Source: Ginglymostoma cirratum
Taxonomy: Eukaryota
NCBI GenBank assembly: GCA_024137785.1
Contig: JAHRHZ010000268.1
Location: 14,026,698 to 14,090,697 of the forward strand
Reading direction: 5' to 3'
Length of the DNA stretch: 64,000 nucleotides
A program made the position numbers and the translations under genes. The notes below the pieces were generated by a model. The model did no database searches and was not told the DNA's origin. It was given only the letters and a program-made list of their open reading frames with translations. This document shows positions 7,071-58,000 of the stretch, one piece after another (the first letter of the stretch is position 1; each line of letters begins with the position of its first letter).

Positions 7071-7074
7071 TGTT

Positions 7075-15301: not shown

Positions 15302-15465
15302 TTGCATTGGATCTGCACAAATGGTTTGATCTATTTATGTCAACCGCGGTAATAGTTCATACTAGGAATGTTTAACAATGTTAACTGCAACCTGTATCTG
15401 CAAAGATTCCCAATATAAAATGTAATTTATGGGGGCTTAGGACAAAAGAGATTTATCTCAGCCTA

Positions 15466-15681
15466 TAGATAACACAGTGTGGAGCTGGAGGAACACAGCA
15501 GGCCAGGCAGCATCAAAGGAGCAGGAAAGTTGACATTTCATGTCAGGACCCCTCTTCAGAAATCTGAAGAAGGGTCCCAAACCAAAACATCAACTTTCCT
15601 CCTCCTCTGATGCTGTCTGGCCTGCTTTGTTCCTCCAGCTCCACACTGTGTTACCTCTGATTCCAGCATCGACAGTTCAAG
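15466..15681. mobile_element. Short palindromic PLE-derived element
   Basis: About 90-bp inverted arms related to the Neptune-type 3' end; TSD ctcagccta at 15457-15465 and 15682-15690. Confidence 0.85.
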
Positions 15682-15935
15682 CTCAGCCTACATGACTCCA
15701 GTTATAGAGATGAGTAACACTCTGTGATCCTCCCTCTTAGCCAAATGTCATGAAGCTGTAATATATGGGCTAGTTATCTTTGATTCCATTGATTGATTTA
15801 ATATCTGAGATTTTCGTTTGAAATAAACCATCTTTAAAATAACTAATATACCATGCTTTAAACAGTTCCAGAAGCTATTTGGACTGCATGTTGACCAAGG
15901 ACCATGGGAGCTTTCAAAAAGGATGACTAAATAAT

Positions 15936-17298
15936 TTTGAGGTTGGTTGGCTCGCCAAGCTGGTTTGTTGTTCCGCAGACATTTCATTACCGTGCTTGGT
16001 AACATCCTCAGTGCAGCATCTGATGAAGCGTCGGTGTGTTTTCCCGCCTGGTTTTTAAACTCTGGGGTCCGTTGCGATGGATTGCCTCACTTCCGGGTTT
16101 CCACCGTAATGGAATGTATATGGGGTCAAGTTCAATGTGTTTATTAATAGCATGCTTCGTGGAGTGCCATGCTTCCAAGAATTCTCGTGCTTGTCTCTGC
16201 CTAGCCTGTCCCAGGATCTTCGTGTTGCCCCAGTCGAAGTGGTGGTTCTCCTTGTCCATGTGGATTGAGATGAGTGAGTATTGGTCGTGTCTTTTTGTAG
16301 CCAGTTGGTGTTCATGTACTCTTGTTGTTAGTTTCCTTCCTGTTTGTCCGAAGTAGCGTTTTTCTCGCAGTCTCTGTAGGGGATCTTGTAGATGACATTA
16401 GTCCTGTCCATGGCGGGGAGTGGGTCTTTAGTTCGGGTGAGCACTTGTCGTAGGATTGATGTGGGCTTGTGTGCCACTCTGATGCCCAGCGGTCGTAGAA
16501 GTCTTGTGGTGAGTTCTGACGTGTTCCTAATGTAGGGTAGTGTGATGAGTGTGTCGGGGCGTGTAGAATCTTTCTGATGCTCTTCCTGTAGGCATCTCCT
16601 GACCCAGTTCTTTGGATATCCATTATCTTTGAACACTTGGAAGTGGTATTCCTCCTCCTCTTGGCGCAGTTCCATGTTGCTGCAGTGTGCTGTTGCCCTT
16701 TTAAATAGTGTTCGCACGCAGCTTTGTTCGTGTGTGCTGGGATGGTTGCTATTGAAGTTCAATACCTGGTCTGTGTGTGTGGCTTTTCGGTGTACTTTCG
16801 TTTGCAGTTCCCGTTTGTCTTGCGCTCTACCATGACGTCCAGGAATGGGAGTTGTTTGTTCTTCTCCTCCTTTCTGGTGAATTTTGTTCCGGTGAGGGTG
16901 TTGTTTATGAGTTTGTGTGTCTCTTCTAATTTGGTCCGTTTAATGATGACAAAGGTGTCGTCTATGTAGCGCATCCATAGTTTAGGTTGGATTTGCGGAA
17001 GGGCAGTCCTTTCCAGTCTTTGCATCACTGCTTCTGCTATGAGTCCGGAGATAGACGATCCCATGGAACACATTGAACTCGACCCAATATACATTCCACT
17101 ATGGAGGAAACCCGGAAGTGAAGCAATCCATTGCAATGGACCCCAGAGTTTAAAAACCAGGCGGGAAAACACACCGACGCTTCATCAGATGCTGCACTGA
17201 GGATGTTACCAAGCACAGTAACAAAACGTCTGTGGAACAACAGACCAGCTCAGCGAGCCAACCAACCTCAACACCCACACCTACAGATCTACTCCAAA
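15936..17298 (-). mobile_element. Penelope-like element (Penelope/Poseidon-type), RT plus GIY-YIG fragments, inverted termini
   Basis: MGSSISGLIAEAVMQRLE..RYIDDTF (RT), NFNSNHP, NVIYKIP; frameshifted; about 200-bp inverted copy at 17070-17271; TSD actaaataat at 15926-15935 and 17299-17308. Confidence 0.92.
17194..17233 (+). ncRNA. Minimal hammerhead-like motif, Poseidon-type family (mutated)
   Basis: Consensus with mirror copy 15975-16014 (-): GCA-CTGAGGA-t-GTTACC-aagcac-GGTAAC-GAAAC-GTC-TGC. Confidence 0.65.
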
Positions 17299-18549
17299 AC
17301 TAAATAATGTTATTAAGGAACTGTTTTATATTAACATAGTTGAAAGTGATAACAAGCAACAAACGTCTCATCTGAAGGAACAGCAGAAACAAGAGAAAAT
17401 CTATTTAAAAGCATTACACTGATAGCTGTGACAATGAGAGATTGAAAGTCCTTCAATGACCATGAATTGGCTCCATTATGGGGAATTTAAAACTAAAAGG
17501 AACTTCAAGTACCATAGCCTCCACTCGGGGGAAAATTTTGACTGCAGTTTGAAAGAAACAGTTTCCAGAAAAACAACCAGCTTACATTAGTCAAGGCACC
17601 ACTGGATTTCCAGACCACAGAAGGAATATCAGAATATATAATTCTTTACAATTATGGTTTTTATATTTTTCCAATCCACATCATCCAGCCTGTAATTTGT
17701 TCTATTTACTGGGATGCTTGTGTGTATATGTTGCAGGTTTTAGTAATGTTTACACTTTAAATCTAAGTGTTTATATTTAATTAACAAAATAAACTCATTA
17801 TTTCCTCACTCAAGAGATCTGGCTGGCTTGTTTCTTCATAGCTTTATACACGGTTGAGGATATATTGATTTGAAAACGGGCATCATTTCAAAAAAGCCAA
17901 GGTCTTTTACCAACCTCAGGGTTGAAAAGAAAGGAATTCATTCACTGGACTTAGTTGAATATTACAATTAAAAGGATTAATTCAGATTATTTCCTGACAA
18001 GAAATTGGAGGTTATCAAGACAAAGGATAAAAGTTGGAACTCACAGTCTTCGTTGGCACCGTTTCACCATTGTGTCTACGGTGTAAATACCTTTGAGACA
18101 TGGTTCACCGTCACTTCAGAAGAAAGATTTTGCCTGCGCTGCCAGCACTTGAAGAAACCTGGGCTTTCGGGGGATATTCTTCCACATTCTTTTTTGTTAA
18201 ATATATCTGACATCTTGCTTGACGCATCCAAAATGATGAACCCTGTTCTTTTGTACTTTTTTGGTGGAGATGCAACGGAGGAATACAATGTGTATAATTC
18301 ACATCCTGGATATTGTGCTGGTTGTTGTCACTCAGCATCACCACACAATCAGTAACTTCTCTAAGTCTACTTCCTCCGTTTCTTCCAGCATGACTAGGGT
18401 GTTGCACGTTTGTCTGAGTTGGTTGCTATTCCTTCATAATTTATCACCATGATCAGGAATTATCAGGTATTATCTGGGCTGGTGGCGTATTCTGGAAATA
18501 TTTGGTGTATTTCTAACCCATTCTCTTTGCTCAGCTTTGGTATTCCTAT

Positions 18550-18765
18550 CACAACAAAAACAAAGTTGCTGGAGAAGCTCAGCAGGTCTGGCATCAGTGA
18601 AGGGAAAAACAGAGTTAACGTTCTGAGTTCCCAGTTCTGAGGGTCACCGGACCCGAAATGTTAACTCTGTTTTTCCCTTCACAGATGCTGCCAGACCTGC
18701 TGAGCTTCTCCAGCAACTTTGCTTTTGTTCTTGATTTATAGCATCTGCAGTTCTTTCGGTTTTTA
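18550..18765. mobile_element. Short palindromic PLE-derived element, family B
   Basis: About 70-bp inverted arms (gctcagcaggtctggca / tgccagacctgctgagc); TSD tttggtatt(c/t)ctat at 18536-18549 and 18766-18779. Confidence 0.85.
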
Positions 18766-19114
18766 TTTGGTATTTCTATGCCTGATAACTCATCATGTAT
18801 CTCTTTCATTCTATTCTGTTTTTGAAAAAAAATGTCTATGCCTCAGAATGTTTAGATGTTTGGTTGCTGGACAAGGCTGTTCCAATGTATCTTCGAACAT
18901 AAGTTCTTCTGGGTAAGGTAAACCGTTCTCCAGCGATGTTTCAGGAAAATGTAGCAACACAGTTCACAAATCTTGCTTTGTTGTGTGACACTTATTGATA
19001 ATGGATTTGTTTGTGTTCTGTTACACTGTTAAAATATGAATAATAGAGTGACAGTGTGATATGGGTAATGATCCACTTTATACATATTCCTTGGTTTGTC
19101 AGGGATCTACAGTC

Positions 19115-19329
19115 GATAAAAAAAGAACTGCGGATGCTGGAAATCTGAAATATAAAAACAGAAATTGCTACAAAATCTCAGCAGGTCTGGCAGCATCTGT
19201 GGAAAGAAATCAGAGTTAACGTTTCAAAGTTCTGAAGGAGGATTATTGGACCTGAAATGTTAACTTTGATTTCTGTCCACAGATGCTGCCAGACTTGCTG
19301 AGATTTTTCAACAATTTCTGTTTTTGTAA
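19115..19329. mobile_element. Short palindromic PLE-derived element, family B
   Basis: Inverted arms; TSD ctacagtc at 19107-19114 and 19330-19337. Confidence 0.82.
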
Positions 19330-20119
19330 CTACAGTCCATTGTCAGACACTATCCATTTCAAGATACAGAATAAACTGGAAGTATTGCTTAAATAAAAAC
19401 AAAGACCTGTAAATGTCGGCAATTAGAATGTATTGTTCCACGTGTCAACAGCTGTCACATTAGTTGTGTTTCTAAGGTTTCCAAACAATAGGAAATTTGG
19501 AAAGGTAGTTAGTCTGAAGAATGTAATATTCCCCATGCACTATGAACAATTCTGGTGATACTTTTGCCTAAGGAATAGATGAAAAATTGTGTGGATGTAA
19601 ACATTCCTGTGCTGCTGGGGTTGATTTATTTGGCATCCCTCACATACATTCAGAAGTCATTGAATATCCTGATTCAACACTGGCTTGTATAAATTCAAGC
19701 GTTAATTGGGAAGGTACATTTAGTACCTATATGCCCCTGGTGTAACATGAAAATATCTTGATGTAATGCTTGCAGAATTAGGACCATAATGCATTTGAAA
19801 ATGAGTTGTTGTGATAAACCAAGTTCATCTCTGTATGGCCAAAATGAACAAATCCTATTGCTAATATCTTTAATACTGTTAGCCAATCCCGCGACAACAG
19901 TGTCTTACAACATTTGTTAATTTTGACACATGTCTGTTGCAGTTTCACCCTGGTCCTGGTCAAAGTGAAAGAGTTCAATCTTGAGACCACTTCAATCTCA
20001 CAGTCCATAGCATCAATGTGAAAGTCAAGAGGAATATCTTAGTCTTTATGTGGGTTGCATAATCTGCACAGCATGCCAGACCCATATTTCACTTCAAAGT
20101 CACATCCTTACACCTTGAC

Positions 20120-20944
20120 TACACCTGCCCCCACACCTCCTCCCTCACCCCAATCCCAGGCCCCAAAAAGACTTTCCACATCAGGCAGAGGTTCACCTGC
20201 ACATCTGCCAATGTGGTATACTGCATCCGCTGCACCCGTTGTGGCTTCCTCTACATCGGGGAAACCAAGCGGAGGCTTGGGGACCGCTTTGCAGAACACC
20301 TGCGCTCAGTTCGCAACAAACAACTGCACCTCCCAGTCGCGAACCATTTCAACTCCCCTTCCCATTCCTCAGATGACATGTCCATCCTTGGCCTCCTACA
20401 ATGCCACAGTGATGCCACCCGAAGGCTGCAGGAACAGCAAATCATATTCAGCCTGGGAACCCTGCAGCCTAATGGCATCAATGTGGATTTCACAAGCTTC
20501 AAAATCTCCCCTCCCCCAACCGCATCCCAAAACCAGCCCGGCTCATCTCCACCTCCCTAACCTGTTTTTCCTCTCACCCCAAGCCACACCCCCATCTCCT
20601 ATCTACTAACATCATCCCGCCCCCTTGACCTGTCCGTCCTCCCTGGACTGACCCATCTCCTCCCTACCCCCCTACCTACACTCACCTTTACTGGCTCCAT
20701 CCCCGCCTCTTCGACTTGTCTGCCTCCTCTCCACCTATCCTCTGCTCTATCCATCCTCTATCCGCCTCCCCCTCTCTCCCTATTTATTTCAGAACCCTCT
20801 TCCCCTCCCCCATTTCTGATGAAGGGTTTAGGCCCGAAACGTCAAGTTTTCCTGCTCCTATGATGCTGCTTGACCTGCTGTGTTCATCCAGCCCCATGCT
20901 TGTTATCTCGGATTCTCCAGCATCTGCAGTACCTTTTATCTCTA
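20120..20944 (+). mobile_element. Penelope-like element (Neptune-type), 5'-truncated
   Basis: ORF 20213-20560 VYCIRCTRCGFLYIGETKRRLGDRFAEHLRSV; TSD-like accttgac at 20112-20119 and 20945-20952. Confidence 0.9.
20813..20846 (+). ncRNA. Minimal type I hammerhead ribozyme-like motif, Neptune-type family
   Basis: CTGATGA-a-GGGT-ttag-GCCC-GAAAC-GTC; equivalents at 6532-6559 (+), 4925-4952 (-), 14419-14446 (-), 39281-39308 (+). Confidence 0.7.
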
Positions 20945-21339
20945 ACCTTGACAAGTAGATGCTTAAATGGCTTTGGTGCACTTATTAGCAATTTTCAGCA
21001 GATCATTTATAATGGCTTATGATCTTTCAACAGTGAACTTTTTTGCCAGTTAAGTATCTGTGAAACTACATAATGTCAATTACCAGGATTAATGTCTTAT
21101 GTTCTTTATTGGAATAATTGGCTTGCAGAGATGACAGGCTTTCGGAATGAAAAACAATAGTTGTATCATCTTGCAAAAAACACATGCTTAAGCCTCTGCG
21201 TGTTGTATCTTTTCGTTGGGTCATAGTATTGCAACAGTGAGACTTTATTGACAGAGCCTGCTTGAGAGTATGGAACACATTGGTGATCACCTTGCCGCAA
21301 GTAAAGCTATCTTTCTTGAACAAATCTCTTAACAGACAT

Positions 21340-21443
21340 CAACAACAACAAAAACAAAGTGGCCGGTAAAGCTCAGCAGGTCTGGCAGCATCTGTGGAGG
21401 AGAAAACAGAGTTAACGTTTCGGGTCCAGTGACCCTTCCTCAG
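21340..21443 (-). mobile_element. Single-arm family B element with intact hammerhead-like core
   Basis: Minus strand reads gttCTGAGGAagggtcactggacccGAAACGTTaac; TSD aacagacat at 21331-21339 and 21444-21452. Confidence 0.8.
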
Positions 21444-21774
21444 AACAGACATACCTTGCTCACTCAGTCAGGAAAATACAGGGAAAGAAGGGTAAAGCAG
21501 GGGTTCTGTGAGAATCCAGGAATGCACAAAAAGAATAAGTGCTGAGAGAGCTAGCAAGCAGCTCTGAAATGCAAGCTGGTCCAGTCTGTGAGCTGGACAC
21601 CTGTCCCTGCCCGCCAAGTGTCCCACCCACAGTATTGCAATATTAGATGCTGGTGTACTCAAAAGTGCAGCATGGCAGTGCAGAACAGCGTGTGAGTGGA
21701 TTAGAGATGTGCCATAAGGGTATGGAAAGGCTGGCTCATATTGGACGTCAACATACATGGACGTCGGGTCTCAA

Positions 21775-22107
21775 AAGGGGCGCTGCGTCCGCAGGTCCTC
21801 CTACTGGAGAAGGGTGTGTGTGCTGAGGTCCTCCTACGGCAGGAGGCGTTGTATCCGCAGGTCCGCCGACTGGAGGGGGCGGTGTGCTGGTGTCCTCCTA
21901 CCACTGGGGGCGCTGTGGGCCGAGGGACGGGGTGCGCTATGTGTTCAGGGCCTCCTACCGCGGGGGGCGCTGTGGCCTGAGGGCCTCCTAGCGGAGAGCG
22001 GTGTTGTGGGCTGGGGTCTTCCGAGCCGACACGGGCGTTGAGCGCTGAGATCCTCCTAACCGGAGGGGGCGCTCCGTTCGGAGGTCCGTCTAGGGGAGAG
22101 GGGCGCT
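21775..22107 (+). repeat. Degenerate GC-rich tandem repeat, unit about 33 bp, about 10 copies
   Basis: GGGGCGCTGTG...AGGTCCTCCTAC variants recur at 31-34 nt spacing. Confidence 0.75.
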
Positions 22108-22242
22108 TCGTCTGATTGGAGCCGCCTCTCTCGCGAGCTTTGCGGAAATCCCGTGTTTCGTGGCTGAGGTGGAAGCTCCACGTCAGAGGAGTCATCAGTC
22201 CGGCCGGGCCTGGGTGTGAGCGCCGGCTGAGGTGCTGCAGCG

Positions 22243-22245
22243 ATG
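22243..22245 (+). CDS. COPB2: COPB2 exon 1 (coding part is ATG only)
   Basis: gcagcgATG|gtgggt in the CpG island; exon 2 begins phase 0 with Pro2. Confidence 0.85.
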
Positions 22246-25200
22246 GTGGGTACATGGTTGTTGACAGGGACTAGCAATGGCTGGCTGGCTGGCTGGCTGG
22301 CGGGCGGGTAGGGAGCCCGAGCCTAACTGTGGGTGCGGGAGGTCGTGGCTGCTGGAAGTCTCCTCCCTGTTATATCAATCACAAAGGGCCCGGCCCCACA
22401 GGCCCTAAGTACAGCCGCAGAGGGTCCCCGGTTTGGGAAGGCCATCTGTATGTACATGTTGCTGATACAAGGGCCAAGCTCTGAAGCAGTGAGAGGAAGG
22501 TGTAGGCTGGAAGGAACTGCATCTGTCCGGCCTCTTGTTCTGCAGTTAAACCCAAATACTGCGGAGGCTGGGATCTGAAGTTAAAAAAAAACACTGGAAA
22601 CAATCAGCAAGTCTGCTAGGATCTGAGGAGAGAAATCAGAACTCCTTTCATTATTGTTCACCGTTGTCAGGCTCGTGCTGTGAACAGGGTCGTCTGGGGT
22701 TAGTAAGTAAATTGTGTTTTAATTTAGGCATGTTTGTATCCTATTAGATATTTAAGTCTTTATAACTTCTAATCATTGAGTCCACAGCTAGTGAGAGCTG
22801 AATTCCTGTGTAGATATATAGTTGAAGGTTTGAGGCTGTTGTAACGCAGAAATGAGGTCGAAGTGTACCTTAATAAACAGTAGCATTAAGAAAATGAGTC
22901 GTCTGGAACACAGTCTGTTTCTCTCCCAAAGTTGCTGCTATACCTAATGAGTTTCTTCATTTTTAGGCTGGATTAACCCTCTCATCTGTCCTGCCTTCTG
23001 TAGAATTGCAAGCTGTGGAGGAATAGACTGATTTGAACATGACTGTTGTTTACCTAAAAACTCATTAATGACTTTTGATGTGAGATCAAAGTAGACAGTT
23101 ATTCGGACCACCACTCATTTCTGCTTCCACGTCAAAAGTTGTGATGAGTTGTGCACTTAAAAAAAATTTTGCAAATTGTGAATTCCTGCAATGAAAAACC
23201 TGCATGAGATGTAAGAGAGGATTTAAGTTAGGTGATGCTTGCTGCCATCTGATCAGTGGGAGCAGATGTGGGCCATTGGGCCCATCAAGTTTGCTCTGCC
23301 ATTAAATGAAATGGCTGATCTGATAATCTGTATGGTATACAAAAACAGAATTAGCTGGAGAAACTCAGTGTGTCTAGCAGCATCTGTCGAGAGAAAGTGG
23401 TGTCAATGTTTTGGGTCTGGCGACCCTTCTTTAAAACAGATTTTAGCTAGGAAAAGGTTGGTATATGCATTGAAGATAGGACTCGATTTTGAGACCTGAA
23501 GGCTACAGAGTGTCCAAACAGAAAATGAGATGTTGTTCTTCCACCTTTGCTGAGATTTGCTGGTGCAAGACTGCAGGCTCAACTCTGAAATGTCGATCTG
23601 GGAACACAGCGTGACATGAAGCTTGGAGTCATTTTTAAAGTCTGAACATCTTCCACGTCCGACACCACCAACCCCACTCCCTGCCCCTACATACCAGGCT
23701 GTGCCATCACATGGGCAGCTTTCACCACAGCCAACCCGTCTTCAGGCACTAATGGTCCCCATTAGCAGCTTTTCTTTTCTCATAAAACTGAGACTTGTAG
23801 AATTGTGACAGTATGGAAACAGGCCATTCAGTGCATTAAGTCCACTCTGACCCTCCAACAAGCATCCCATTCAGAACCCCTCCCCAGTCCCTTTAACCCT
23901 GCATTTACCATGTCTAATCCAGCTAGCCCGCACATCCCTGGATATTTTGGACAATTTAGCGTGGCCGATCCACCTAATCTGCACATCTTTTGACTGGGGA
24001 GAACACTGGAGCACCCAGAGGAAACCCACACAGACACGGGGAGAATGTGCAAACTCCGCACACATTCTCCTGATGCAAGAATTGAACCTGGGACTCTGGC
24101 ACTGTGAGGCAGCAGTACTCCCCATTGAGCCACCATGCCACCCCTTGGCTCGCCCTCATCCATTCTGTTGTCTGCTCCAATGCTGTTCTTCTCTCTGGTC
24201 TCCATCTCCAGCTACAGTTTACTTTGTTGCCTGTCAAATTGTAGAGCATTCTTGGGAAATGATTGCTGTGTGTTTCTGCATCATTCCCTCTGGAGTCCTA
24301 AAGACATGTCATTCATATTCTCATTCACATGCTGCCTGTGACACCATTATTCAAGATTTCTCCATTGTGCTGTCAGACTGTTTATCTGACATGTAGTCTT
24401 AGGAGTTGCAATTTCTATTAATTAGACATGAGGAATATCAAATCTCTTGACGTTGATTCTTGTCAAAAACTCTTTGACATTGACTCGGCCCCCTTCACTG
24501 ACTACTATCAAATAGTGAACTGGAGTGTTAAAGTTATGATCCAAGTTGATTGTTAAACTTGCAAGATGTTTTTAATTTTAGTGACTATGGCATGATCAAG
24601 TTCCATATATATATATCTCACATTTTTCTTTCAGAATGTATGTAGGTAATTGGAAGTAGTTAATTAGAAATTCATATGCCGTAGGATTGGATGGATTAAT
24701 GATGGATTTAAACCATTGTTAGTAAAAATACTGTTTTTGCTGAAATGTTTATTTTGTTTTTCCCTCTCTTGAATGTAATGACTTGCTCCATATGGCTCGA
24801 TAGAAGGTAATGTCCCTTTGCTATCATGTGTGAGTGGCTCATTGTGTATGAATGTGCACAGGGAACGTGATCAGCTGCTGTAATGTTAAATTTTATGAAC
24901 TTATCTGGTAATAGTCTGCCATGACAATTCTGTATAAAGAAAGGAATTTTGTTTACAAATTTATGGACCTTTCATGACCACAAATTATTCAAATGTAGTT
25001 AATAGGTTAATACATCTTTAACAGAGTCCCACAAAGACTTGACTTGAAGCATTTAACAGTGATGGAATCAATGTCCCATATTTTATGATCAGTCAGCCTC
25101 ACATAACTCAGTTGTTACTGTGAAACAAATCCAGTGGACTTTATCCTTAATTTGATCCAATTAGAGAATTTACTTCATTTTGAGGAGCCTGTTTGTTAAC

Positions 25201-28200: not shown

Positions 28201-31200
28201 TTTTCAGTCTAAAATATGGAAACAAGTAATGCTGTGCTAGAATGTTGTACTTGGTTCAAAAATGTATTTTATTTTGTAAAGATCTGATGTTGAGCAAAGT
28301 ATGTTGGTACACTTCAGGTGTGGCAGCTTGGGTCATCCTCACCTAATTTCACCTTGGAGGGCCATGAAAAAGGAGTGAACTGCATTGACTACTACAGTGG
28401 TGGTGATAAGCCCTATCTGATTTCTGGAGCTGACGATCGCCTAGTTAAAATCTGGGATTACCAGGTACGGATAATTTATGACATTAAGTAATTGTTCGTG
28501 CATGTTTAGTAATTATGTAAGAATATTTAATGGTGTATTGGATTTTATTTAATAATAAAAGTTGATTCTGCAAAATGATGTAACATAAACATTGCTTCCA
28601 TAATGATCAAATTATACAAAAGTGTTGGCTATATTCTTCATTGTGATTAAAAGGCAAAACTTCAAGCCATTATGGGTCAACAACTGACAAAAGCATAGAT
28701 GCAGCAGCAAAATGATCAATATTTCCACCAGGGTAAAATCAGCTGATCATCTAATTTATATAAAATCATTGCCAATACTTGCAAAAATTAGTGAAGCTGA
28801 ACATATTGCTGTGTGCAGTGATTATTCCATTGCCAAACGGAAGGCAATGGCCTGGTGGTCTTATCGCTGGACCGTTAATCCAGAGGCCCAGGTATTGTTT
28901 TGGTGACCCGGGTTTGAATCCTACTATGGCAGATGGAATTTGAATTCAGTAAGTATCTAGATTTAAGGGTCTAATGGGACCCATAAAACTATTGCCAGTT
29001 ATTGTAAAAACCTATGGGTTCACTGATCTCCTTTAGGGAAGGAATCTGCCATCCTTACCTCATCCGGTCTATATGTAACTCCAAACCCACAGAAAGATGG
29101 TTACTCTTAACTGCCCTCTGGGCAATTAGGGATGGGCAAGAAATGCTGGCCCAGCCAGTTACACTGTCATCCAGTAAATTAATAAAAAAATTCAACCTAA
29201 TGACTAATCCAACTTTTTATTTCTAAATTATTTAATAAGTATTAATGTTATAAGTGAAATAATGCTGCTTTGCTTGTAGAATAAGACTTGTGTTCAGACA
29301 CTGGAGGGCCATGCTCAGAATGTCTCTTGTGTTAGCTTCCATCCTGAACTTCCAATTATCATCACTGGATCAGAGGATGGTGAGTATTGCATGTTTCAGT
29401 AATTGCTATTAATGCTTATTAAAAGTGCAAGTTTGATTTTTAAAATATATAAAATCGAAGAAAACCAACCAGTAACTTTTGTAGAATAAAATTAACTGTT
29501 AGTTTCTTGTCTGCTAACTTGTTCCACAACTTGTATATTTTGGGCAAAAAGACACTTCTTTCTTAAAACTTCATAATGGTTAACTTGTGGCCACTGATAT
29601 TTAAATAATTAATGATAACGAATTATGTGCTTTTAAAATTGAAGAGAAGCTTTCAAATGAATATAGAAAATTCCAAATAACTATGCTAGAGAATTGATAA
29701 TTGCAGCTTTTTCATGTAGTTTCTTTGTGACGTGGTCATTTTTGATTGACATGGAGTGGAGCTGTCTGTAGCTTAGTGAAGGTGTAAAATAGATAATGAA
29801 GAAATTGTTTAGTATTAATTGTTACCAAAAAGAGACCAGAAATTGAAGCTTTTCATCTTGCACTTGTCAGGACAAGGATGCAAAAAACAGACTTGAAGAA
29901 AGGGACATTTGTTTATGCAGTATGTCCTTTTTCTCAAGCCTGTTTTCTTATGACCTAGTCCTGATAAAGTACAAAACAAAAAGCTTTGATTTCTTGTCTC
30001 CTTTTAGTAATGTTTGAGTTCTGTGCTCCCAGGAAAAGATTAGTATTAATCAGGAAGCTGTTTTGTGGAAAATGACTTGTAGTTGTGATGACCCATGCAG
30101 TGTTCTCAAAAGCTTACTATTTTGCATTGGCCTGATGTTGAGAAACGAATGATCTGAAAGTATCTCTTTTCTTTGCATCGTAAAGGGCAGGCTTTAAAAG
30201 CAGATTGGATTGAACTTGAGTAGAATTGCTGATTGTATCTTCACAATGCTCTGCATTTCTTTGTATGTTACTTTTATTTGAAAGGTTAATTAAAATGTCT
30301 CAAAAATTTGTCCATTTTCCACATTACTACAAGGAAGGGTTTTGAAATTCATTGCTTACCAACACACTCATTATTTATAGCTGGTTTAAAGAAAGTTGTA
30401 ATGGAAAACAATAGATGTGATCAAGAGTAAAAGGAAATGATTTTTTAAGTTATGTCTGGTCTTGATGAAGCAGCATTTGGTGTATTGTATTCAGTTTTTT
30501 TTTTGCCTTCACCGGAAAATGTAAAATTAGTGGAAGGATTTTAGCGAAGATTTGTAGCTCGGGTTGTGGGTGACGTTGTTGATTCGCTCGCCGAGCTAGC
30601 TAGTTTTCGTTCAGACATTTTGTCACCACACTAGGTAGCTTCATCGGTGAGGCTTCCGATGAAGCAATGTTGTTCTACTCCACTAGGAATTTATACTGTC
30701 TGGCCTGTTATGGTGACTAGTGTCATTTCCAGTTTTGTTCTGTATAGGTTTGTATATGGGGTCCAATTCTCTATGCTTGTTGATTGCATTATGGGTTGAG
30801 AACCATGCCTGTTGGAATTCCCGTGTGTATCTATATTTGGCTTGGGCTACTGTGGTTGCATTGTCCTAGTTAAACTGATGGGCTTCATTGTCTGAGTATA
30901 CTGATTTTAAGGAAAGTTTGTCATGTCGTTTTGCCGCTAGCTGATGCTCGTGTATTCTAATGGCTAGTTTCCATCCTGTCTGTCCAGTGTAATGTTTGTG
31001 GCAGTCGTTGCATGGTATTTTGTAAACCATGTTGGTTCTGCATGTTGTGGGAACAGGGTTTTTAATACGTGAGCGTTTGTTGTAGAATGGCTGTGGGTTT
31101 GTGAGCTACCATGATTCCTAGTGGTCGTAGGAGTCTTGTTGCCAGTTCTGGTATGTTTCTTGATGCGGGGCAATGTGGCCAGTGTGTTAAGGTGTATTGT

Positions 31201-40200: not shown

Positions 40201-43200
40201 TATGACACTACCCAGGGTCCTATCATTAATTGTATAAGTCCTGCCCTTGTTTGTTTTACCAAAATGTAATACCTCTTCTAGTTAGATTGAAGTAATGAGT
40301 AGGAAGCCTTTTCCTGTGCCTAACCTCAAATAACATTAGGCATTTGCTACTTATAATTGCATAGGTGTTATGAATAATAGTTGCATTTCAATTCTCCTCT
40401 CTCAAGTTTCACTCCTTTTCTGAGGACACTGACCTATTTTAGAATACAATTTCACACTCCCTTCTTTAAGTGACAGTTTTCCCTGAGACCAGATCTTAAA
40501 TGTACGTAGACTATTCCCCTGAATAGGGAATCATAACCAAGCCTGATCATGTTTTTACACATGCTCTTTGCTCGTAGGATCACTGGATCATGATCAGGTT
40601 CGCAAATTTAGGCTGATTCTGCTCCCCACTTCCTTCCCTAACTCAATAGCATCAAGACCCATTGCATTGCTCATTCCACCAGTCTAAACAAGACTGAATT
40701 GTCCTAAATTATATGATACTAAATCTTACAATGCATTTGCTACATCAACCTTAGCTCCATGCTACTTTTTCTTTCCTTGCAGATATTCTGGTCAGATTCC
40801 GGTGAACTAGTGTGCATTGCTACAGAGGATTCCTTCTTTGTTTTGAAATATCTTGCTGAGAAAGTGGCCACGGCACAGGAAACACATGAAGGAGTTACAG
40901 AAGATGGCATTGAAGATGCCTTTGAGGTCAGGTTGCAAATACTTAACAGTTGAGACGTTACTTAAAAGCAAGAAGAAAACTGAACATTTTAGGATATAAA
41001 AAGTTGCTTAAATAAAACCTGTCTTTCATGGGTATGGTGAACTAAATGACCTGCTGTGCAGAAAATCTTATGTTTTTAATTACAATAAGCTGCAGTTATG
41101 CTACTCCAAGCTTGACATGTTTTTGATTGTTTTGAATTTTTCTAATTACTTGGTACTGGGAAATTATTTCACTGAGTTAAGTGGTTTGTTTAATTTCTTT
41201 GGACATACTTTTTCCAGGTTCTTGGTGAAATTCAAGAAATTGTTAAGACTGGATTGTGGGTAGGAGACTGTTTTATCTACACCAGCTCTGTGAACAGGCT
41301 CAATTACTATGTTGGTGGAGAGATTGTCACCATTGCCCATCTTGACAGGTCAGTGGGAGAGCAGTGGAGAACTTGCAGGACTTACAAATAATGCTCAATA
41401 TCAAATGCTTAAGCAAAATTTGTTTTTACTTGTTCATGGAAAGGTGTCACTGCTGGCCAGTATTTTATTATCTATCCATAATTATTCTGAAAGGGGAGAG
41501 TGATCTAGCAATGGTTTGTGTGTGTTCTGTATTTGTTACATGATCTATAACTAATACCTTGGAAAGAAAAAATTCAAAAATTTGTAGAGTCTGGTTTCAG
41601 GTTCCTTACCAGATCAGCTGCAGTTATGAATAGTAAATGTACAGCATTTAACAGCTCGTGAGTGAAAGTTAGCTGTGTGTCCCGAAGTATGCCTTAGGAA
41701 CAATTTTAACTGTTTACAGCTGTAAATTGAAGACCTTAAAATCACAGCATACAGTAACTGTGATAAATTGATATGACTATTCATACTAAATATCAGTTGT
41801 AATTCCACTTCCTTTCCCTTTAAACCAGAGCTTTGCAGTCTGAAAAATTCTTTTCTTCCTTTGCTAGATGTTAGTATACAGTTCCATGGACATTGATTTC
41901 CTGGCTATAACCAACTAACCGCCCTCTACATGTGAAGTTTGGGACCTTGTGTCAATGGGCTATTTATTGTTGGGTTATCAAGCCCAATGTTATTTTTCAT
42001 CCAGCTTTACTGACACTGGTGCCCTGTATACTTTTTTTTCATTTCTCCTTGGCCTAGGGACTTGCCTTCATTAGCATCAGCTAACTTCGCCAAAGATTGA
42101 GCTGGACACTTGTGCTCTGTTTGATTTGGTCTATATTTACTCAAAGGTTATAAAAGAAACTTTGAAGTCGGTTAACTGAACTCATGTAGTTCCAAAATGA
42201 TCTACATAACTGAAACTGTTATTTTCATTGAAGATCAATGTTAAAGTGTTACAATTTAAGTGCCGATATTATTATTTCAGAACAATGTACCTCCTGGGTT
42301 ATATCCCAAAAGATAATCGACTGTATTTGGGAGATAAAGATTTGAACATCGTCAGCTATTCTTTGCTTGTCTCTGTGCTCGAGTACCAAACTGCAGTCAT
42401 GAGGAGGGACTTTTCCATGGCCGACAAGGTTCTTCCCACAATTCCAAAGGAACAGAGGACAAGAGTAGCACACTTCCTTGAGAAACAGGTTAGATGGAAT
42501 ATAACAACAAAAATGTCAGAAATACTTTTTGTAGATTGTTTCATTCAACAAGGGCGTTTCTCAGCAGAAATGATCCACAACTTCCACTCTCCACAATATT
42601 TAACTTAAAGTAAGCATGCAGTTGAAAGACCGTTCTTGTTGAGCACTTCTCTAATTGCTAAATTGTCTTATGTGGAAATTTTTTTTTCAAAAAGTCAATT
42701 TTTAAATATTCCTATTAAACACATGTTTTTGGTTGCAGCTTTATTTAGATGTTCTAAATTGAATAATACTTGGCAATTTTCCTTCAGTAATGTGAAAAAC
42801 TCTAATGCTCAAGTATGACAAGCACATTAGAGTTTTGGTGATTGTCTAATGGTTAAGGAAATCTCTCTTGTATGTCCAAGCACATCCTGTGTTAAAGACA
42901 CAGGAGGTCTGGCAGTTAAAATTGAATACAATGCCTCTTTGTATTTATTTGTTTTTGTCCAAAATACATTAAGATATGGAAAACTTGGCTTGTGAATGGG
43001 TGGAAGAAATTCCACAAGATAGTCAGCAGGAAAAGAGATATTGGATAGTGGCTGCACAGTTGGAAACTTGGCAATGGTAGGGTTGTGGTGGACGGGAAAG
43101 TATGAAGAACCTTTAGGGAAAGTTTATCAAGAAATGGAAAATAGGAAAGGAAGAAAGAAGGAGAAAAGTGAAAATAATTGAAATGTTTGTAATGATAGGT

Positions 43201-46200: not shown

Positions 46201-49200
46201 GTTACAAGGGCTACATAATAGATGGTGGTATGGTGCAATTAAAACTACTGGAAGTGAAAGCACAGGAAAAATGAGCAACATTTGGGAGCCTGGAATAGAA
46301 AAAAAAAGTTAATATTAAGAATACAGACTATTCTGTCAGATGTTTTCTGATGGGGTTTGTCACCCCAAGCAGGTTTCAAATATGTAGTTTACTCATTCCA
46401 TTTAATCCTGCAGTTGATATTAAGTCTGTGAACCTGTACATCATTTTCTGAAAATAGGTATAAATTGTATTTCAATTCAATTTAAAAAGATTGTTTTGTT
46501 TTCTTCAAAAAAATTTATTTTCATCCCCACAGTCAGAACAGAAGTGGAAGCAGTTGGCAGAGCTTGCGATCAGTAAGTGCCAGTTTACCCTTGCTCAGGA
46601 GTGTTTACACCATGCACAAGATTATGGTGGACTGTTGTTGCTGGCTACTGCCTCAGGCAATGCTCCAATGGTTAACAAATTAGCAGAAGTTGTCGAAAAA
46701 GATGGCAAGAACAATGTGGCCTTTATGACTTATTTCATGCAAGGAAAGTAAGTACTACACCTTTCAATCTTTACTTTTAACTTCTTTGACAGATTTGCTA
46801 AATTTCAATCACTTGACACTGCTGAATACAATTCATTTCTATAAACAATGAATTGTGTTTTTTTACCATTTTGTTTTCAGATTTTCAGCTTATGATTATA
46901 ATAGTAATTTGAATACAATTTGAAGAGCCTGGACATGTCCACTTAAGGAAATTGTCTTTTTCAATACACCCTCTGGAAAATTTAAAAATATCTCAATTAC
47001 GTTACCCTAAACATTCTATAGTCAAATAATCTTAACCAGATTTATGCAACCTGTCTCTTTAATTTTATTTCTTAAGCTCTTGTTGAGTGAATCATCATTC
47101 CCGTTCAGGTCCTGTATATTCTTCCTATATTTGTTCCTGCTATTTGGTGCCTAAATTGAATCTAATATATTATGTAGAATATACAGCAAAGAAAGAGACC
47201 ATTTCCCCGAGGTTTAAACATTGATGTACACAACAACACCACCCCTGAAACAAAATCCATCCAGAGTTGTGAATTCAATAAGCGTATTTGGCTATTCTGT
47301 TAAGCTTGCAATTACTTTATCTTTTAAAATTATTTCATGTAGGCTTGACAATTGTTTGGAATTGCTGATAAAAACAGGACGTCTCCCGGAAGCTGCCTTT
47401 TTTTCTAGAACCTACTTGCCAAGTCAGGTTTCTAGGTATGAGTCTACAGTTTCAATTCCATCATAGCACAGTGCAATCTTGCATGTTTACATACAAAAAT
47501 ACATGTGCATAATAATTTGCATTCTGACGCTAACTTTTCCTTTCAGGGTTGTGAAACTCTGGAGAGAGAATCTTGCCAAAATAAACCAAAAAGCTGCAGA
47601 ATCTCTTGCTGACCCCACAGAATATGAAAACCTATTCCCAGGTCTAAAAGAAGCTTTTGTAGCTGAGCAGTACCTGAAAGAAACCAGCAAGACTAAAGAG
47701 AGACCCGCCAGGGATTACCCTCTTGTCACTGTAAGTTATAGCATCCTTTTATTTTATAAAAATGTTGAGAATTTGGATTAAAATAGAATTTGCCAGTGCT
47801 AATCTTGTTCCTGCTATTTTTGCTCACTAGCCAAATGAAGAAAGGAATGTTATTGAAGAGTCAAAAGACTTCACACCATCTCATCATGGAGCATCGGTTG
47901 AGGTAGCTGATTATTATAAAACGCATCCTTTCTTCAGAAATTTAAAAAAAAGTATTGGAAAAATTCAGATCTGGCAATGTCAAAGTTAACCGAGTTGAGT
48001 CCAACATGACTTCAATGTTAGAGAGTTGTATTGGATTCACTGTGAATGTTGTTTCTGTCTCCAGATACTGGCCAGACCTGCTGGATTTTTCTGACACTAT
48101 TTTTATTTCAGATCTCCACCATCCACAATAACTTGCTTTTGTTCCTTGATTTCTGAGTTGGAAAGTTAGTGTTGAAGTCAAAGCCCTCCACAACCATGGA
48201 CACATCTTTACTATTAATCTATTGAAAATGTTTCAAGCTGGAGTTAGAAACAGTTCATAAATCAAGAATTTGCATGTCTCAGTTGAGGAAGGAGCTCTGC
48301 TGGCAGCATCTTAGTCCTGCAATATTAAAAATTCAAACAAGGATTTTTTTTAAATGACTGATTCCCTGGACCAATATAACAAAAAAAAACTTTGATATAA
48401 TTAGAAGATTTCAACAATTTATGTTTTGTCATTTTAGAATTCTAAAGATGAACAGGAAACAGTGTCAAGTGTGTCTACACCAAATGCATCAATGATAGCA
48501 GACGCAAAACCTGTATTAGAATCAGACCCTGCTTATGTGGTGACTACAGCTGTGCCACGAGGAATGGACATTGAAACTAAAAAGGTATTTCAACTTGAGC
48601 AAGATAAGAAAACTCATTTAAGCAAATCCATGTTTGTAAAGATCAATATCGACTAAAGCTGTAAAGATGAACTCCATTGACTGGCCACTCCTTACTGAGG
48701 TAAAAATGGAGTATCTGCATTTACTGAAAAGGAAACCATTTATCTTTTTTGAGATAAAAGAAAGGAACATTATAAAGTAAAACCAAATTGATAACGGATT
48801 AAAAACCGAAAGAACTGCGGATGCTGTAAATCAGGGACAAAAACAAAGTTACTGCAAAAGCGCAGCAGATCTGGCAGCATCTGTGAACGGAAAAAACAGA
48901 GTTAACATTTCAGGTCTGATGACCCGTCCTCAGAACATTAATGGATTAGGTAGCTTGGGACCAAGATGGTGCATCCTGAATTTTTCGGAAAAAAATGGTA
49001 AACAGAATGGCACGTGATAAACCACTAAATAAATTGGTCCTCCACTAGATACGGAGGCATGTTGTGGGTTGGATAAATAATTGATTGCATTCTTGTAGAC
49101 TCAAAATAGATATTAATGGTAATGGAAAATAGTTAATCATGGAGCCCAGAAATAGATGTTTTTCACCATCATTAATAGTGGTGTATATAGACTACTTGGT

Positions 49201-51034: not shown

Positions 51035-51040
51035 AATAAA
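51035..51040 (+). terminator. Probable COPB2 polyadenylation signal
   Basis: AATAAA about 300 nt after the stop; a second AATAAA at 51456-51461. Confidence 0.6.
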
Positions 51041-51177
51041 ACTAGTTACATTTTTCATGGGACTCTGGCACATGTTTGGCTCACCCCCTTTAATGGAACA
51101 CTAATCCCAAGAGAAGTTGACTATATTAATTTTACATTGAGAATACCTTCAAAGCAGTGACATGAAATATTGAATAT

Positions 51178-51183
51178 TTTATT
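51178..51183 (-). terminator. Candidate MRPS22 polyadenylation signal
   Basis: TTTATT on + strand (AATAAA on -), about 700 nt past the MRPS22 stop. Confidence 0.35.
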
Positions 51184-51880
51184 ACAAATGTAGTGAAAAA
51201 CAACCAGTGTTTGAGGACAATTGTTTGCTCTTGCACTGAAAATGGTTAATGTGAAGCCTATGTTTTCTTGGGTGATTTCAATTTTAATCTCTCCCACTCC
51301 ATCTACAGACCATGTGGGTGACAGCATACTCTCATATTTCAACATGTGAATTATTGTTCAAAGCAAACATTTTGAAATCACTTCAATAATGAGTGTTTCC
51401 AGATGGAGGCAATCCAAAGAATAGACTTTAAAAATGAAAGGGAGTGTAACTATACAATAAAATGCCAAATTTCACTACAGGACTAGATCGCTCTTGCTTT
51501 AGCAAAAAATCCATTTCGTCAGCATGTTAGCACTTGTTACAATTAGGTTTCAAAAATATTGTATATTTGTAGAGAGCTTGACAAGTTCAGGCTTCGTTGT
51601 GATCTCACCTGAAGTCACACAACACGATGACTCAATTGAAACTTAGACCGTCTGTGGAACCGTTCTCCAGTGCTAAATGCGTCCTCTTTGTAGAAGTCTA
51701 ATGGCCCAACCTGCTCATATTCCAATTTTTCAAAGCATTAGAACACCTGTAATATTTCAATACTTTGAAGAAAATATTTTCTTTTCCCCAAAAATACGTG
51801 GAATAGAAATGAATAGAAACGTTCAGTTACTCCACATTCCTAGCAAGCTGAATTCAGAACTCTTGCGTTGGACAGATTGA

Positions 51881-52000
51881 TTAATTTCCTTCTTCGTTCC
51901 GACATGGATCTTGATTAGCAGAGCTGTTGAGCGTGTCCTGGTAAGCTTGCAAAGCTAATTCAATGTAGCCTCCTTTTTGGGAATCGGTATGGGAAAATAT
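51881..52000 (-). CDS. MRPS22: MRPS22 terminal coding exon
   Basis: ttctag|[39 protein letters not shown]. Confidence 0.93.
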   Translation of the reverse strand: MFSHTDSQKGGYIELALQAYQDTLNSSANQDPCRNEEGN

Positions 52001-55000: not shown

Positions 55001-58000
55001 GGTTGTTGTGTGATTTGCCCTGCTCCACCAGTATGTTGTCAAAAGTTAGGCATTAAAACAGACCGGGAACATCTGTTTACAGAGCCATTAAACTCACCAA
55101 AAAGTAGGTTGGGTCTTGTTCATTCACATTTAAGTGAATTTTTAATGCGGTTATTAAATTTTAGTTGGCATCAAACAAGTTCTCCATATTTGTAAGGTTA
55201 TTTTTTAAGAGAATTTTATCATTGATCAACTTTTTGCCACTCTTTTCTTTCATTATATTGATCGCTGCATGTAAAATTATATTGAATTAAATATTCTAAT
55301 TTGCATTTCCTGGCTCAGGCTCCTCCTGCGCCTCAGAAAGGATTCTTCAATTGGCTAACGACATGTTGATGCTTGTGCTGTTCACTTAGGACCCAGATAA
55401 CAGGAAAACGCAGGCTACATAACTATTTCCACTGAATTAAGGCCAGACTGTTCAAGAGAGAGATGTGAGGCAACACTTCTACACACAAAGGGTAGCAGAG
55501 GTTTGGAACTCTCTTCCACAATTGGCAGTGCAAGCAGCATCAGTTGTTAATTTTATAACTGAGATAATACCTTTTGCTTAACAAAAATGTATCTAAGGGA
55601 TACGGGCCAAAGGCAGATATATGGAATTAGGTCACAGATCCGCCACGATCTCATGGAATGGTGGAACAGGCTTAAGGGGCCGAATGGCCTGTTTCTAATT
55701 TTGTATTTCCCCCCTACTTTATAGAGTCAGAGTTTTTACAGCACGGAAAGAAGGCCTTCGGCCCATCGTGTCCATGCTGGTCATCAAATTTCCATCTATT
55801 CCAATCCCATTATTCCAGCTCTTGTTCCATAGCCTTGTGTGTGATGGTGTTTCAAGTGTTCATGTAAGTAGTTACTAAATACCTGGACAGTTCCCAACTC
55901 CACAACTCTTTCAGGCAGTGCGATCTTACTGTGCATACTGGCAGCCACTTGGGACTTGAAAAAGTCCTTCACAAGCCCAACACTCTGGAAATTGTGAAGC
56001 AAAAGCCCGTGAAGAGTCAAAGGGTAGTTGTTAGTCTAGTAAATGCTCGTGCTGTAGTTCATTGTTGAGCTCACAATCTAGCCCAGTTTTTTTTGGGGGG
56101 GTCGGTTAGCTGAGTTGGCTGGATGGTTGGTTTGCAATGCAGAATGATGCCAATGGGTGTGGGTTCAGTTACCGCTGAGGTTCCCAGGAAGAACATTCCT
56201 CCTTCACCTCTCCACTCGTCTGAAGTGTGGCAACCCTCAGGTTAAACCACCACCAGTCTCTTCCTTCCCTCTCACTCATTAGAAAGAGCAGCCCTATAAC
56301 CCAGTAGGACTACGACAATTTTGTCTTTTTATATTAGTGATTCCTTCGACAAAGACTATGGTCTAATCTTCATTTCAAGAGGTATATTTCTCCCACTAGA
56401 TGGTGTCAGAATCAAGTCACCCGACACCAGCTTATTGTCCTACAGGTTTATTTGAAATCACAAGCTTTCGTAAATGCTGCCCCTTTGTCAGGTGAAGTCA
56501 CCTGACGAAGGGGCAGTGCTTTGAAAACTTGTGCTTTCAACTAAACCTGTAGGACAATAACCTGGTGCTGTTGATTTACGACTTTTGTCATTCCTAGTCC
56601 AACATCGGCACCCCCACATCCTGACCACTAGATGGTGCCATTGCTTTAAAATCACTGCATGATAAGACTCCTTTAGTCGGGGTAATAAGTGATAATTCAT
56701 TACCAAAAAAAAATGTTGCTGCACTTTAGTTTCACTAGCCCACATCTATGTATTTTGGCTATGGATTTTGATAAAGGCAAGATATCTGTTTCTTGTCCTC
56801 AATCCCTGTGTAGAGTTTGGATATGAATGACGTTGAAACAGCCTGTAAACACTTGAAAATAAAGTTATGTGTGGGGTATCAGAACTAGGAACAGACTTTT
56901 AAATTCTTTTCCAAGAACATTATGATGTCACACAGTGACTGAATTTATGCATTTCAATTGATGCGCCAACCCTCAAGTGCCTTGTACAATGCATTAGCTT
57001 TGATTTAATCACATATAATTCATTTGTTAAAAGTTAATTAACAAAATTGCTAAACCTACCATTTGCTTAAAATTTTATCAATCTCCATTCATGACAGTTG
57101 AACGCAAAATTTAAATGGATCAACGCTATGTCACAGTAACAGTAACACAAGCAATCAGTAAGTCTCTGCGAAGGGTGGTATGCATTATTGTATAGACAAG
57201 GCCATAAGTTGTATAATTTAAGGAGAAACTGATAGAATCACAGGTAGCTGGGCTGCCAGATTTCCAATTTTCTGCCAAAATTTCCAAGAGGGTTTGTGGG
57301 ATTCAAGATCTCTTTGTTACGAGAATTAATCATTCATACCATTAGACAAAATATTAGAAGTTCTGACATGGGGGGGTGGCAAAGGTGGTGGGAGATGCTA
57401 ACCATTGAGTCAATTAACTTTCAACCAATGATTACATCTGATTAAATTACTGAATTTAGGCATGGTATGAGTGGATTAAATTGATGCATTTCATCCCCAC
57501 ATTTCTATCATCATCGTAGTAGTTGTAATGTTCTGGGAACAGTACTTAAAACCATGTCCCCAGTATGATACATTAGGGAGATCTTGGGTTTGTCTTTTCA
57601 CGGGCAATATGATGCATACCATGGAAATCTGTGTGCCACGTGTAAAGTTTACATCAATGTTTTAATATTTCTGTATCTTGAGCTGTTTACACTGAACTTC
57701 TCTGCCGAATTCATCCATTAATAATTACTGAAAGAATCCAAAACAGCCTCATTTAAATTCCCCAGCTTAGAATATTCAAACGAGGCAATCCTCCAGAAAA
57801 AAAATCTTCAGTTAGCAAAACTTGTGCACCTGATCATGTTAGGGCTTGTAGCATGTGTTTGGGTCTAAAATTACAGTTTGAATACTTGCTCTGAACTGTG
57901 GGAAGGGAAAGCTAAGTTTTTATAAATTGAAGCTTCACAAAAGTAATTTCAAGCATTCTATGTAAATCTGATGATAGAAATTTTAACTACTTCAGTTTGT

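Follow-up and report, generated by a model that had tools for sequence, protein, structure and literature searches.

How do non-coding hairpins of 162–219 bp come to stand five times in one short stretch of a shark genome? The stretch is a 64-kb window of Ginglymostoma cirratum (assembly GCA_024137785.1, contig JAHRHZ010000268.1, forward-strand positions 14,026,698 to 14,090,697; coordinates below are those of the window). An earlier note, made from the letters alone, had described five near-palindromes there as miniature, ribozyme-bearing mobile elements derived from the ends of Penelope-like elements (PLEs). Our analysis leads, with slightly better than even confidence, to a different account. 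The hairpins, here called A1, B1, B2, B3, and C1, would be the smallest form of the known back-to-back PLE insertion, built afresh at each site from two short ribozyme-bearing ends.

The five near-palindromes were real at the intervals first reported (Table 1). Opposite-strand self-BLAST aligned each at 79–85% identity (E 1e-26 to 6e-54), and an inverted-repeat search detected the arms in all five. Folding z-scores were −20.0 for A1 and −14.3 for C1, with 0 of 200 shuffles equally stable for these two, and the plus-strand folding energies of B1–B3 were −99 to −125 kcal/mol. Each hairpin is bounded by its own target-site duplication (TSD), abutting the ends exactly. As a control, a boundary-exact repeat of this quality was found in 8 of 20,000 random intervals and, with 3 nt of slack, in 107. 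The reported absence of an open reading frame (ORF) also held, the longest stop-free frame being at most 50 codons. In every hairpin, an inverted 5′-truncated copy adjoins the main copy, and the ends are asymmetric. An unpaired tail stands on one arm only, at full length in B1, B2, and C1 (36, 36, and 37 nt) and shortened in A1 and B3 (25 and 22 nt), and the outermost 15 nt of the ends are complementary at merely 2–7 positions. Symmetry about the centre is confined to A1 and C1; in the B copies, the two joined arms have different breakpoints.

The arms point to PLEs as the source. Those of A1 match the 3′ ends of the coding PLEs P1–P3 and P5 of the window at 80–85% identity, in agreement with the earlier note. 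With nhmmer, a profile of this family (A) found 6 of 6 B seeds (E 2e-9 to 1e-14), and the reversed-window control gave no match under E 0.8; by this homology, family B is a diverged relative of A. Family C matched only itself, and neither A nor B, in a profile scan of the window. The three sequence families proposed before thus reduce to two lineages, A with B and C apart. Family C was assigned to PLEs by its anatomy and hammerhead, no sequence parent having been found. Family B has at least 10 loci in the 64 kb, and all 13 B-type arms are short, none reaching far above the core. The proposed check for a PLE sharing the arms of B and C gave a divided answer: B is homologous to the ends of coding family A, whereas the window lacks a long copy of either B or C, and the searches of outside collections described below turned up none. 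GIY-YIG domains were found in P2 and P3, and the P3 endonuclease region was 94% identical to a PLE protein of Rhincodon and 88% identical to a protein of Stegostoma (20 matches among 358 candidates), which points to a carpet shark as the probable host. In the translations of P1 and P2, and in homologues, a Cys-rich C-x-R-x-x-C-x-x-C stretch precedes GIY-YIG. Because such a linker between reverse transcriptase (RT) and endonuclease (EN) marks the Neptune clade (PMC3846280), we place the P1/P2-type parents of A and B in Neptune, by the linker and not by an RT tree.

Homologues outside the window were sought through proteins translated from the junction frames of A1, B3, and C1. The A1 frame gave one match among five candidates, P0021 (eukaryote set), which is single-armed; its A1-like arm (76% over 41 residues) continues into sequence of 3′ untranslated region (3′UTR) type and not into a second arm, so long relatives exist. 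Three matches were obtained with the B3 frame. P0024 is two-armed (E 4e-4), P0022 carries a single arm, and P0023 was dropped as a low-complexity chance match. In P0022, the arm is of B type, in antisense, and lies within a predicted protein resembling calpain, which indicates that exonisation or mis-annotation occurs. None of seven candidates matched the C1 frame. The B and C motifs had 0 matches in prokaryotic genomes, B1 had none in plasmids, and C1 had none in phages, collections not expected to hold shark DNA.

Hammerhead-like cores, whole, mutated, or truncated, had been reported at the hairpin centres. They are hammerhead-derived, but all of them are damaged. In an alignment of 14 cores from families A, B, and C, 83% of 153 cells were paired under the type I fold, with 13 cells changed on both sides, and all four helix I pairs showed two-sided changes. 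On three measures out of five, the fold outdid all 500 shuffles, while 34 and 36 of 500 reached the other two; these counts come from 14 related sequences, one C row of which was misaligned by one column, and hence are not p-values. Slid controls paired only 17–47% of cells, and the hammerhead register beat all of them. The cores also have a bulge after position 9 and a palindromic helix III, both typical of dimer-type PLE hammerheads (PMC4209133, PMC6765202). The conserved core bases, a G-C pair closing the base of helix II, and a helix I that is short are present as well. At family level, this covariation identifies the cores as true minimal hammerheads. A strict descriptor gave six matches against 0.01 expected, in P1, P2, P3, D1, and the single-arm copies at 21340 and 48802; 0 of 10 hairpin arms passed it. 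Keeping the core unpaired within a hairpin costs 8–25 kcal/mol (6 of 6 strand-cases tested), and whichever strand is transcribed, the antisense arm comes first. The hairpin cores are apparently relics buried by pairing and not working ribozymes, so “ribozyme-bearing” was too strong a description. Rfam hammerhead families gave no match up to E 10 in the whole window or in 21330–21480. The best Rfam matches were sub-threshold microRNA hairpin models, rejected as shape matches. Of 13 B arms, 9 have a pattern of branch point, pyrimidine tract, and CAG downstream of the cleavage site, although two of these 9 matches are located elsewhere in the arm (e.g. 21390–21415 on the minus strand, 18660–18683 on the plus strand).

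The list of five was correct as far as it went but had missed short single-arm copies and an inverted element across the assembly gap (2412–2860), which is probably a young hairpin insertion that broke the assembly. Five larger inverted insertions (P1, P5, D1, D2, and the gap element) share one layout, in which a tailless and a tailed arm are enclosed by TSDs of 11–15 bp. In all 10 inverted insertions, five mini and five larger, a single tailed arm is paired with a single tailless one (p about 0.001 if arms were independent at 0.5). Single-arm copies with TSDs occur both tailed and tailless, whether long (P3 tailed, P2 tailless) or short (48802 tailed, 21340 tailless). Across 14 insertions, TSDs range from 8 to 15 bp.

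The 5′ ends of the arms pile up at one place. Numbered relative to C3 of the hammerhead, and read by eye from alignments, they start at −1/−4 (A1), −4/−4 (C1), −9/+25 (B1), −4/+22 (B2), +6/+41 (B3), −3 (21340), and −3 (48802). The longest arms of these seven short TSD-bounded insertions all begin within −9 to +6, with a clustering P of 7e-6 (uniform) to 4e-3 (exponential, mean 30 nt). In the other six TSD-bounded insertions of known interior, the longest arms extend beyond −500, and none of the 13 has a longest arm ending between −10 and about −500. The earlier suggestion that the hairpins are the limit product of PLE integration was sound as to inverted integration but overlooked this pile-up, which random truncation explains poorly. 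Position −4 is the 5′ edge of helix I. The Initiator consensus is YYANWYY, and a match with its A at −4 was found in B1 and in all six of the long A-type arms, against a background of about 1% per position. An A/T run starts at −30 to −35, about 26–31 nt above −4, in five of the six long A-type arms. In D1 and D2, which belong to different families, the short arms begin at one homologous codon to within 1 nt. This codon lies close to the end of the ORF, at −130, and the boundary is a possible RNA 5′ end for the Poseidon-like clade. For comparison, about 121 nt (46 + 75 nt; PMC2377424 with PMC4209133) separate helix I from the start site above it in Drosophila virilis. Two other origins of the arm ends were considered. 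The cleavage site (about +29 to +31) is not the starting point of any arm, the nearest being at +22, +25, and +41, and an ORF start was set aside, as A subfamilies and B do not preserve a common reading frame (by eye).

Several points weigh against a fixed RNA 5′ end at helix I. The −9 to +6 interval was chosen after seeing the data, and the hairpins alone (n = 5) give P of 2e-4 to 0.024. The count leaves outside it the gap element and five B-like copies with unclear TSDs (22552, 23340, 32971, 33790, 48048); if the weak 7-bp TSD of the copy at 23340–23441 is real, that copy would start at about −24, and P becomes 3e-5 to 0.04. B1 extends to −9, past the proposed start, and the short arm of P5 starts at −93. 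The Initiator-like motif is not matched at C1 (by eye) and is absent from the four D arms, and the six long A arms are related and not independent. The motif also coincides with helix I base for base, so its conservation may serve only the ribozyme. In D. virilis, the promoter has been characterised as an internal one without a TATA box (PMC2377424). A transcription start at −4 is putative. Alternatively, the wall could be the end of an intron: a pyrimidine run with CAG at −2 is found in B1 and P5, and helix I is where the D. virilis intron ends (PMC4209133).

We propose that each hairpin would be the dead-on-arrival product of a single Neptune-type PLE insertion. The RT/GIY-YIG protein would nick both target strands 8–15 bp apart, and each 3′ end would prime a separate cDNA, one beginning at the tail end, the other at an internal start about 35 nt upstream. 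Both cDNAs, each 105–140 nt, would run out where the RNA itself begins, a fixed point bordering helix I on its 5′ side and most likely the site at which transcription from the pseudo-long-terminal-repeat (pLTR) promoter starts. We infer that the two cDNAs (about 105 and 140 nt) would then be joined end to end, often after trimming, into a hairpin of about 215 bp with one tail, and gap fill-in would yield the TSD. Capture of a single cDNA would leave a single-arm copy, and RT starting at the downstream pLTR of the mRNA would make long arms. The mRNA starts in the upstream pLTR (PMC6765202), so start sites would also lie near the RNA 5′ end, and priming there would give run-off cDNAs. Truncated genomic copies that keep the promoter could serve as donors too. 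With the upstream part of the promoter missing and the ribozyme paired away, the hairpins would not propagate. Anatomy, homology, TSDs, tail asymmetry, and 5′-end clustering were observed in the window. Both-strand priming, two internal start sites, and run-off at the template 5′ end are borrowed from in vitro work on another PLE clade. There, the protein of a PLE from Anolis cuts each target strand and extends it, and on an RNA spanning the upstream pLTR and the ORF start, RT begins at two internal sites, which set the limits of the tail; 5′-shortened RNA gives shorter products, and ribozyme cleavage is dispensable (PMC11167929).

The rival that survives best, which we still regard as unlikely, places mobility in a non-autonomous monomer of about 140 nt. 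Such a SINE-like (short interspersed element-like) or retrozyme-like master would start at helix I and carry an internal promoter, and hairpins would form de novo from two monomer cDNAs. The uniformly short B-type arms and the intact hammerheads of both single-arm copies suit this scheme, and pLTR-derived non-autonomous retrozymes and monomers are known in vertebrates, including one chondrichthyan (10.64898/2026.07.22.740005). For B and C, with no long copy at hand, a short master element is equally possible, and this counts against insertion directly from a PLE. Family A, however, has long copies together with a mini hairpin at the same 5′ wall. B1 retains upstream bases resembling those of P5, no tandem array is present in the window, and the B copies are 58–91% identical between loci, as expected of several subfamilies and not of one master.

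A little less probable is that the hairpins mark the plain limit of random 5′ truncation, with no special boundary and with clustering produced by detectability and ribozyme conservation. Heavy 5′ truncation with an inverted truncated copy is the published norm (PMC8557442), arm lengths in the window run from about 75 to 1750 nt, and a steep length distribution gives the clustering a P of only 0.004–0.04. Against this stand the empty interval between −10 and about −500, the two arms of A1 and of C1 ending within 4 nt of the same point, and the second boundary in D1 and D2.

We give an equally low probability to a palindrome that is itself mobile. Here, read-through hairpin RNA from a host gene would be reverse-transcribed whole, and the hairpin would silence the ribozyme and so protect the template. 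Symmetric palindromes of the A1 and C1 type would then be a non-autonomous retroelement, a MITE (miniature inverted-repeat transposable element) look-alike whose RNA silences its own hammerhead and is copied whole by the Penelope RT/endonuclease. A1 and C1 are indeed symmetric with 2-nt loops, the cost of opening the core is consistent with silencing, and hairpins are frequent (five in 64 kb, with a B-type one in P0024). The earlier note had left mobility and de novo formation as alternatives, to be separated by their junctions. The junctions of B1, B2, and B3 all differ (3 of 3), and P0024 from outside the window adds a further B-type tailed hairpin junction by protein alignment; A1 and C1 are single copies. 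Over 53 common columns, each B arm was nearest to its own partner (6 of 6; 0.91–0.96 within vs 0.72–0.89 between loci), so arms group by locus and not by side. Over 391 columns, the mismatches comprised 10 G-U and 18 A-C (p 0.18), which lends no support to ADAR editing or to an RNA-structure signature. Tailless arms end at the internal RT start site of their family and carry no 5′ flank, and no three-arm structure exists among the 10 inverted insertions. Because junctions differ, arms group by locus, and there is no editing-type excess, de novo formation at each site is favoured over a mobile hairpin, and the word “mobile” in the original description lacks support. Two considerations weigh on the other side. 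Palindrome centres tend to undergo asymmetric deletions, and the differing B junctions could be later centre deletions hiding one symmetric common master, as the mobile reading would have it. Also, young masters would have identical arms, and A1 and C1 are known as single copies. Within the hairpins, arms diverge by 8–17%, and the copies are accordingly old.

Snap-back, in which a single RNA gives the palindrome through a cDNA that folds back at the 3′ end and self-primes second-strand synthesis, seems very unlikely. It fits the symmetric A1 and C1 and also B1, P1, and D2, where the tailed arm is longer. In P5, D1, B2, and B3, the tailless arm is the longer, by more than 900 nt in P5 and D1, and a tailless first strand cannot template a tail; this argues against snap-back and for two separate cDNAs. 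That the hairpins are MITEs of a DNA transposon family is scarcely credible, as the earlier note also held, since their size, lack of an ORF, and hairpin shape are outweighed by five TSD lengths in five elements (14, 8, and 12 bp within B), termini without an inverted repeat, arms homologous to PLE 3′ ends, and single-arm copies with their own TSDs.

If two short PLE ends are indeed joined afresh at each site, the mini hairpins are genomic fossils of a strong-stop-like intermediate, locating to the exact base where the RNA begins and where RT initiates at its two sites, and they support two-template, both-strand priming in vivo. How the inverted ends and tails of PLEs form is presented as unresolved in PMC8557442. 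At the density of this window, such hairpins would be very numerous in carpet-shark genomes and likely mislabelled as MITEs or microRNA precursors. They would break short-read assemblies, as at the gap at 2412–2860, and seed double-stranded RNA in introns.

The window has a G+C content of 40% and a single 400-N assembly gap. PLE-derived segments number 19 per 64 kb and cover 16% of bases. A WD-like exon at about 32.0 kb and a coatomer TPR domain exon at about 42.3 kb (E 3e-13) mark a coatomer subunit gene, which we take to be COPB2. B3 sits between these exons, and the gene hosts at least this hairpin. PLE insertions appear locally clustered: P2, A1, and D1 are three independent insertions in 1.8 kb (14338–16141), B1 and B2 are separated by 350 bp, and B3 is 130 bp away from another B copy. 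Older single-arm B-like copies without a clear TSD lie at 22552–22640, 23340–23441, 32971–33056, 33790–33887, 48048–48140, and 22915–22959. P5 has an internal duplication of about 80 bp in its 3′UTR (37551–37762) and has lost its RT core between 38722 and 38740 (residues ~406–589 of P0015). A SINE-like element at 23828–24211, presumably of V-SINE type as judged from its translation, and repeated 3′ fragments resembling long interspersed elements (7041–7754, 39503–40200, 61130–61612) are ordinary shark repeats. Two nested weak inverted repeats (39 and 33 nt, 77–79%) at 56884–57564, in 680 bp of A/T-rich DNA, are possibly an old DNA-transposon relic.

Table 1. Hairpins, other PLE insertions, and host gene exons in the window
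Feature	Position	Strand	Description
A1 TSD	15457–15465, 15682–15690		9 bp
A1 tailless arm	15466–15563	−	5′ end −4 of hammerhead C3 (15559); no core base missing, mismatch in stem II
A1 tailed arm	15563–15681	+	begins −1 of C3 (15564); G12 mutated; truncated tail 15657–15681 (25 nt)
B1 TSD	18536–18549, 18766–18779		14 bp, 1 mismatch
B1 tailless arm	18550–18622	−	5′ end within ribozyme, ~+25
B1 junction filler and tailed arm	18623–18765	+	arm from ~−9; 4-nt core deletion; tail 18730–18765 (36 nt)
B2 TSD	19107–19114, 19330–19337		8 bp
B2 tailed arm	19115–19226	−	begins ~+22; tail 19115–19150 (36 nt)
B2 tailless arm	19227–19329	+	from ~−4; core changed at position 9
B3 TSD	33174–33185, 33348–33359		12 bp
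B3 tailed arm	33186–33263	−	begins ~+41; truncated tail 33186–33207 (22 nt)
B3 tailless arm	33258–33347	+	from ~+6; few bases common to both arms
C1 TSD	56393–56405, 56625–56637		13 bp
C1 tailless arm	56406–56495	−	from −4 (C3 at 56491); G8 mutated
C1 tailed arm	56498–56624	+	after 2-nt loop, from −4 (C3 at 56502); helix III mismatched; tail ~56588–56624 (37 nt)
Gap element, inverted family A insertion	2412–2860 (~0.45 kb)		tailless end left, 32-nt tail right; perfect 15-bp TSD; interior is the 400-N gap
P1, long inverted Neptune-type insertion	4824–6624 (1.8 kb)	tailed arm −, tailless arm +	tailed arm 4824–6000, tailless arm 6001–6624; arms 94% identical; 13-bp TSD
P2, single tailless Neptune-type copy	14353–15301	−	GIY-YIG remnant; 8-bp TSD
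P3, single tailed Neptune-type copy	20120–20944	+	GIY-YIG; 8-bp TSD
P5, long inverted Neptune-type insertion	37429–39393 (2.0 kb)	tailless arm −	tailless arm to ~39187 with RT and EN remnants, tailed arm 39188–39393; 13-bp TSD, 1 mismatch
D1, inverted Penelope/Poseidon-like insertion	15939–17298 (1.4 kb)		short tailed arm from 17067; RT remnant; 13-bp TSD, 1 mismatch
D2, inverted Penelope/Poseidon-like insertion	30537–31466 (0.9 kb)		short tailless arm from 31260; 11-bp TSD
Single-arm tailless B copy	21340–21443	−	9-bp TSD; starts at core (0 to −3); intact minimal hammerhead
Single-arm tailed B copy	48802–48938	−	10-bp TSD, 1 mismatch (weaker); starts −3 to −5; intact minimal hammerhead
Coatomer subunit gene exons	31974–32375 and 42210–42608	+	Pfam TPR_COPA_B

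The closest known systems are the inverted-pLTR insertions of endonuclease-bearing (EN+) PLEs. These have an inverted 5′-truncated copy and a 30–40 bp tail at one end and cause assembly trouble (PMC8557442). An Adineta PLE has a 9-bp TSD, a 31-bp tail, and a shorter inverted pLTR (PMC3846280), the D. virilis PLE has inverted repeats of variable size (PMC2377424), and the inverted layout also appears in PMC8969392. The hairpins resemble these insertions in the inverted truncated copy, the one-ended tail, and the hammerhead in the pLTR, with Adineta TSDs of 8–10 bp. They differ in being two ribozyme-to-tail units with no ORF between and with 5′ ends piled at helix I. In Schistosoma, opposite-strand pairs of minimal hammerheads lie 100–700 bp apart, and many lone motifs come from truncated PLEs (PMC4209133). 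Like the hairpins, those pairs occupy short loci of PLE origin, with a minimal type I hammerhead on each strand. In the portion of that paper available to us, however, they receive one sentence, without TSDs, junctions, mechanism, or the orientation of the two motifs, and the hairpin cores are only about 5–11 nt apart, back to back.

Non-LTR retrozymes share with the hairpins a non-coding nature, a type I hammerhead, kinship to PLE pLTRs, long TSDs, dispersed monomers, and occurrence in a chondrichthyan (PMC7229834; 10.64898/2026.07.22.740005). In contrast, retrozymes repeat head to tail in tandem, each unit having a hammerhead, and give circular RNA; the hairpins are back-to-back, with cores broken and sequestered, and do not start at the cleavage site. 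Self-BLAST and a hidden Markov model scan found no tandem head-to-tail hammerhead units in the window. PAc, the Poseidon element of Anolis, offers in vitro several of the steps that we propose: both strands are cut and extended, two internal RT starts delimit the tail, and the template 5′ end sets the length (PMC11167929). It belongs to another clade, and the accessible text of that paper does not discuss inverted or palindromic insertions. MITEs are also short, non-coding, hairpin-forming, and numerous; the hairpins differ in having no terminal inverted repeats, a variable TSD, and a retrotransposon origin. One human PLE relic is listed, without its structure, in the accessible part of PMC5753468. 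No description of miniature palindromic PLE ends in sharks, or of minimal doublets with a fixed 5′ wall, was found in the literature searched, which omits most subscription papers, and it is quite possible that these hairpins are already catalogued in Dfam or Repbase. The gross architecture, an inverted insertion with one tail, is already known for PLEs, and what appears to be new is the minimal doublet with a fixed 5′ wall.

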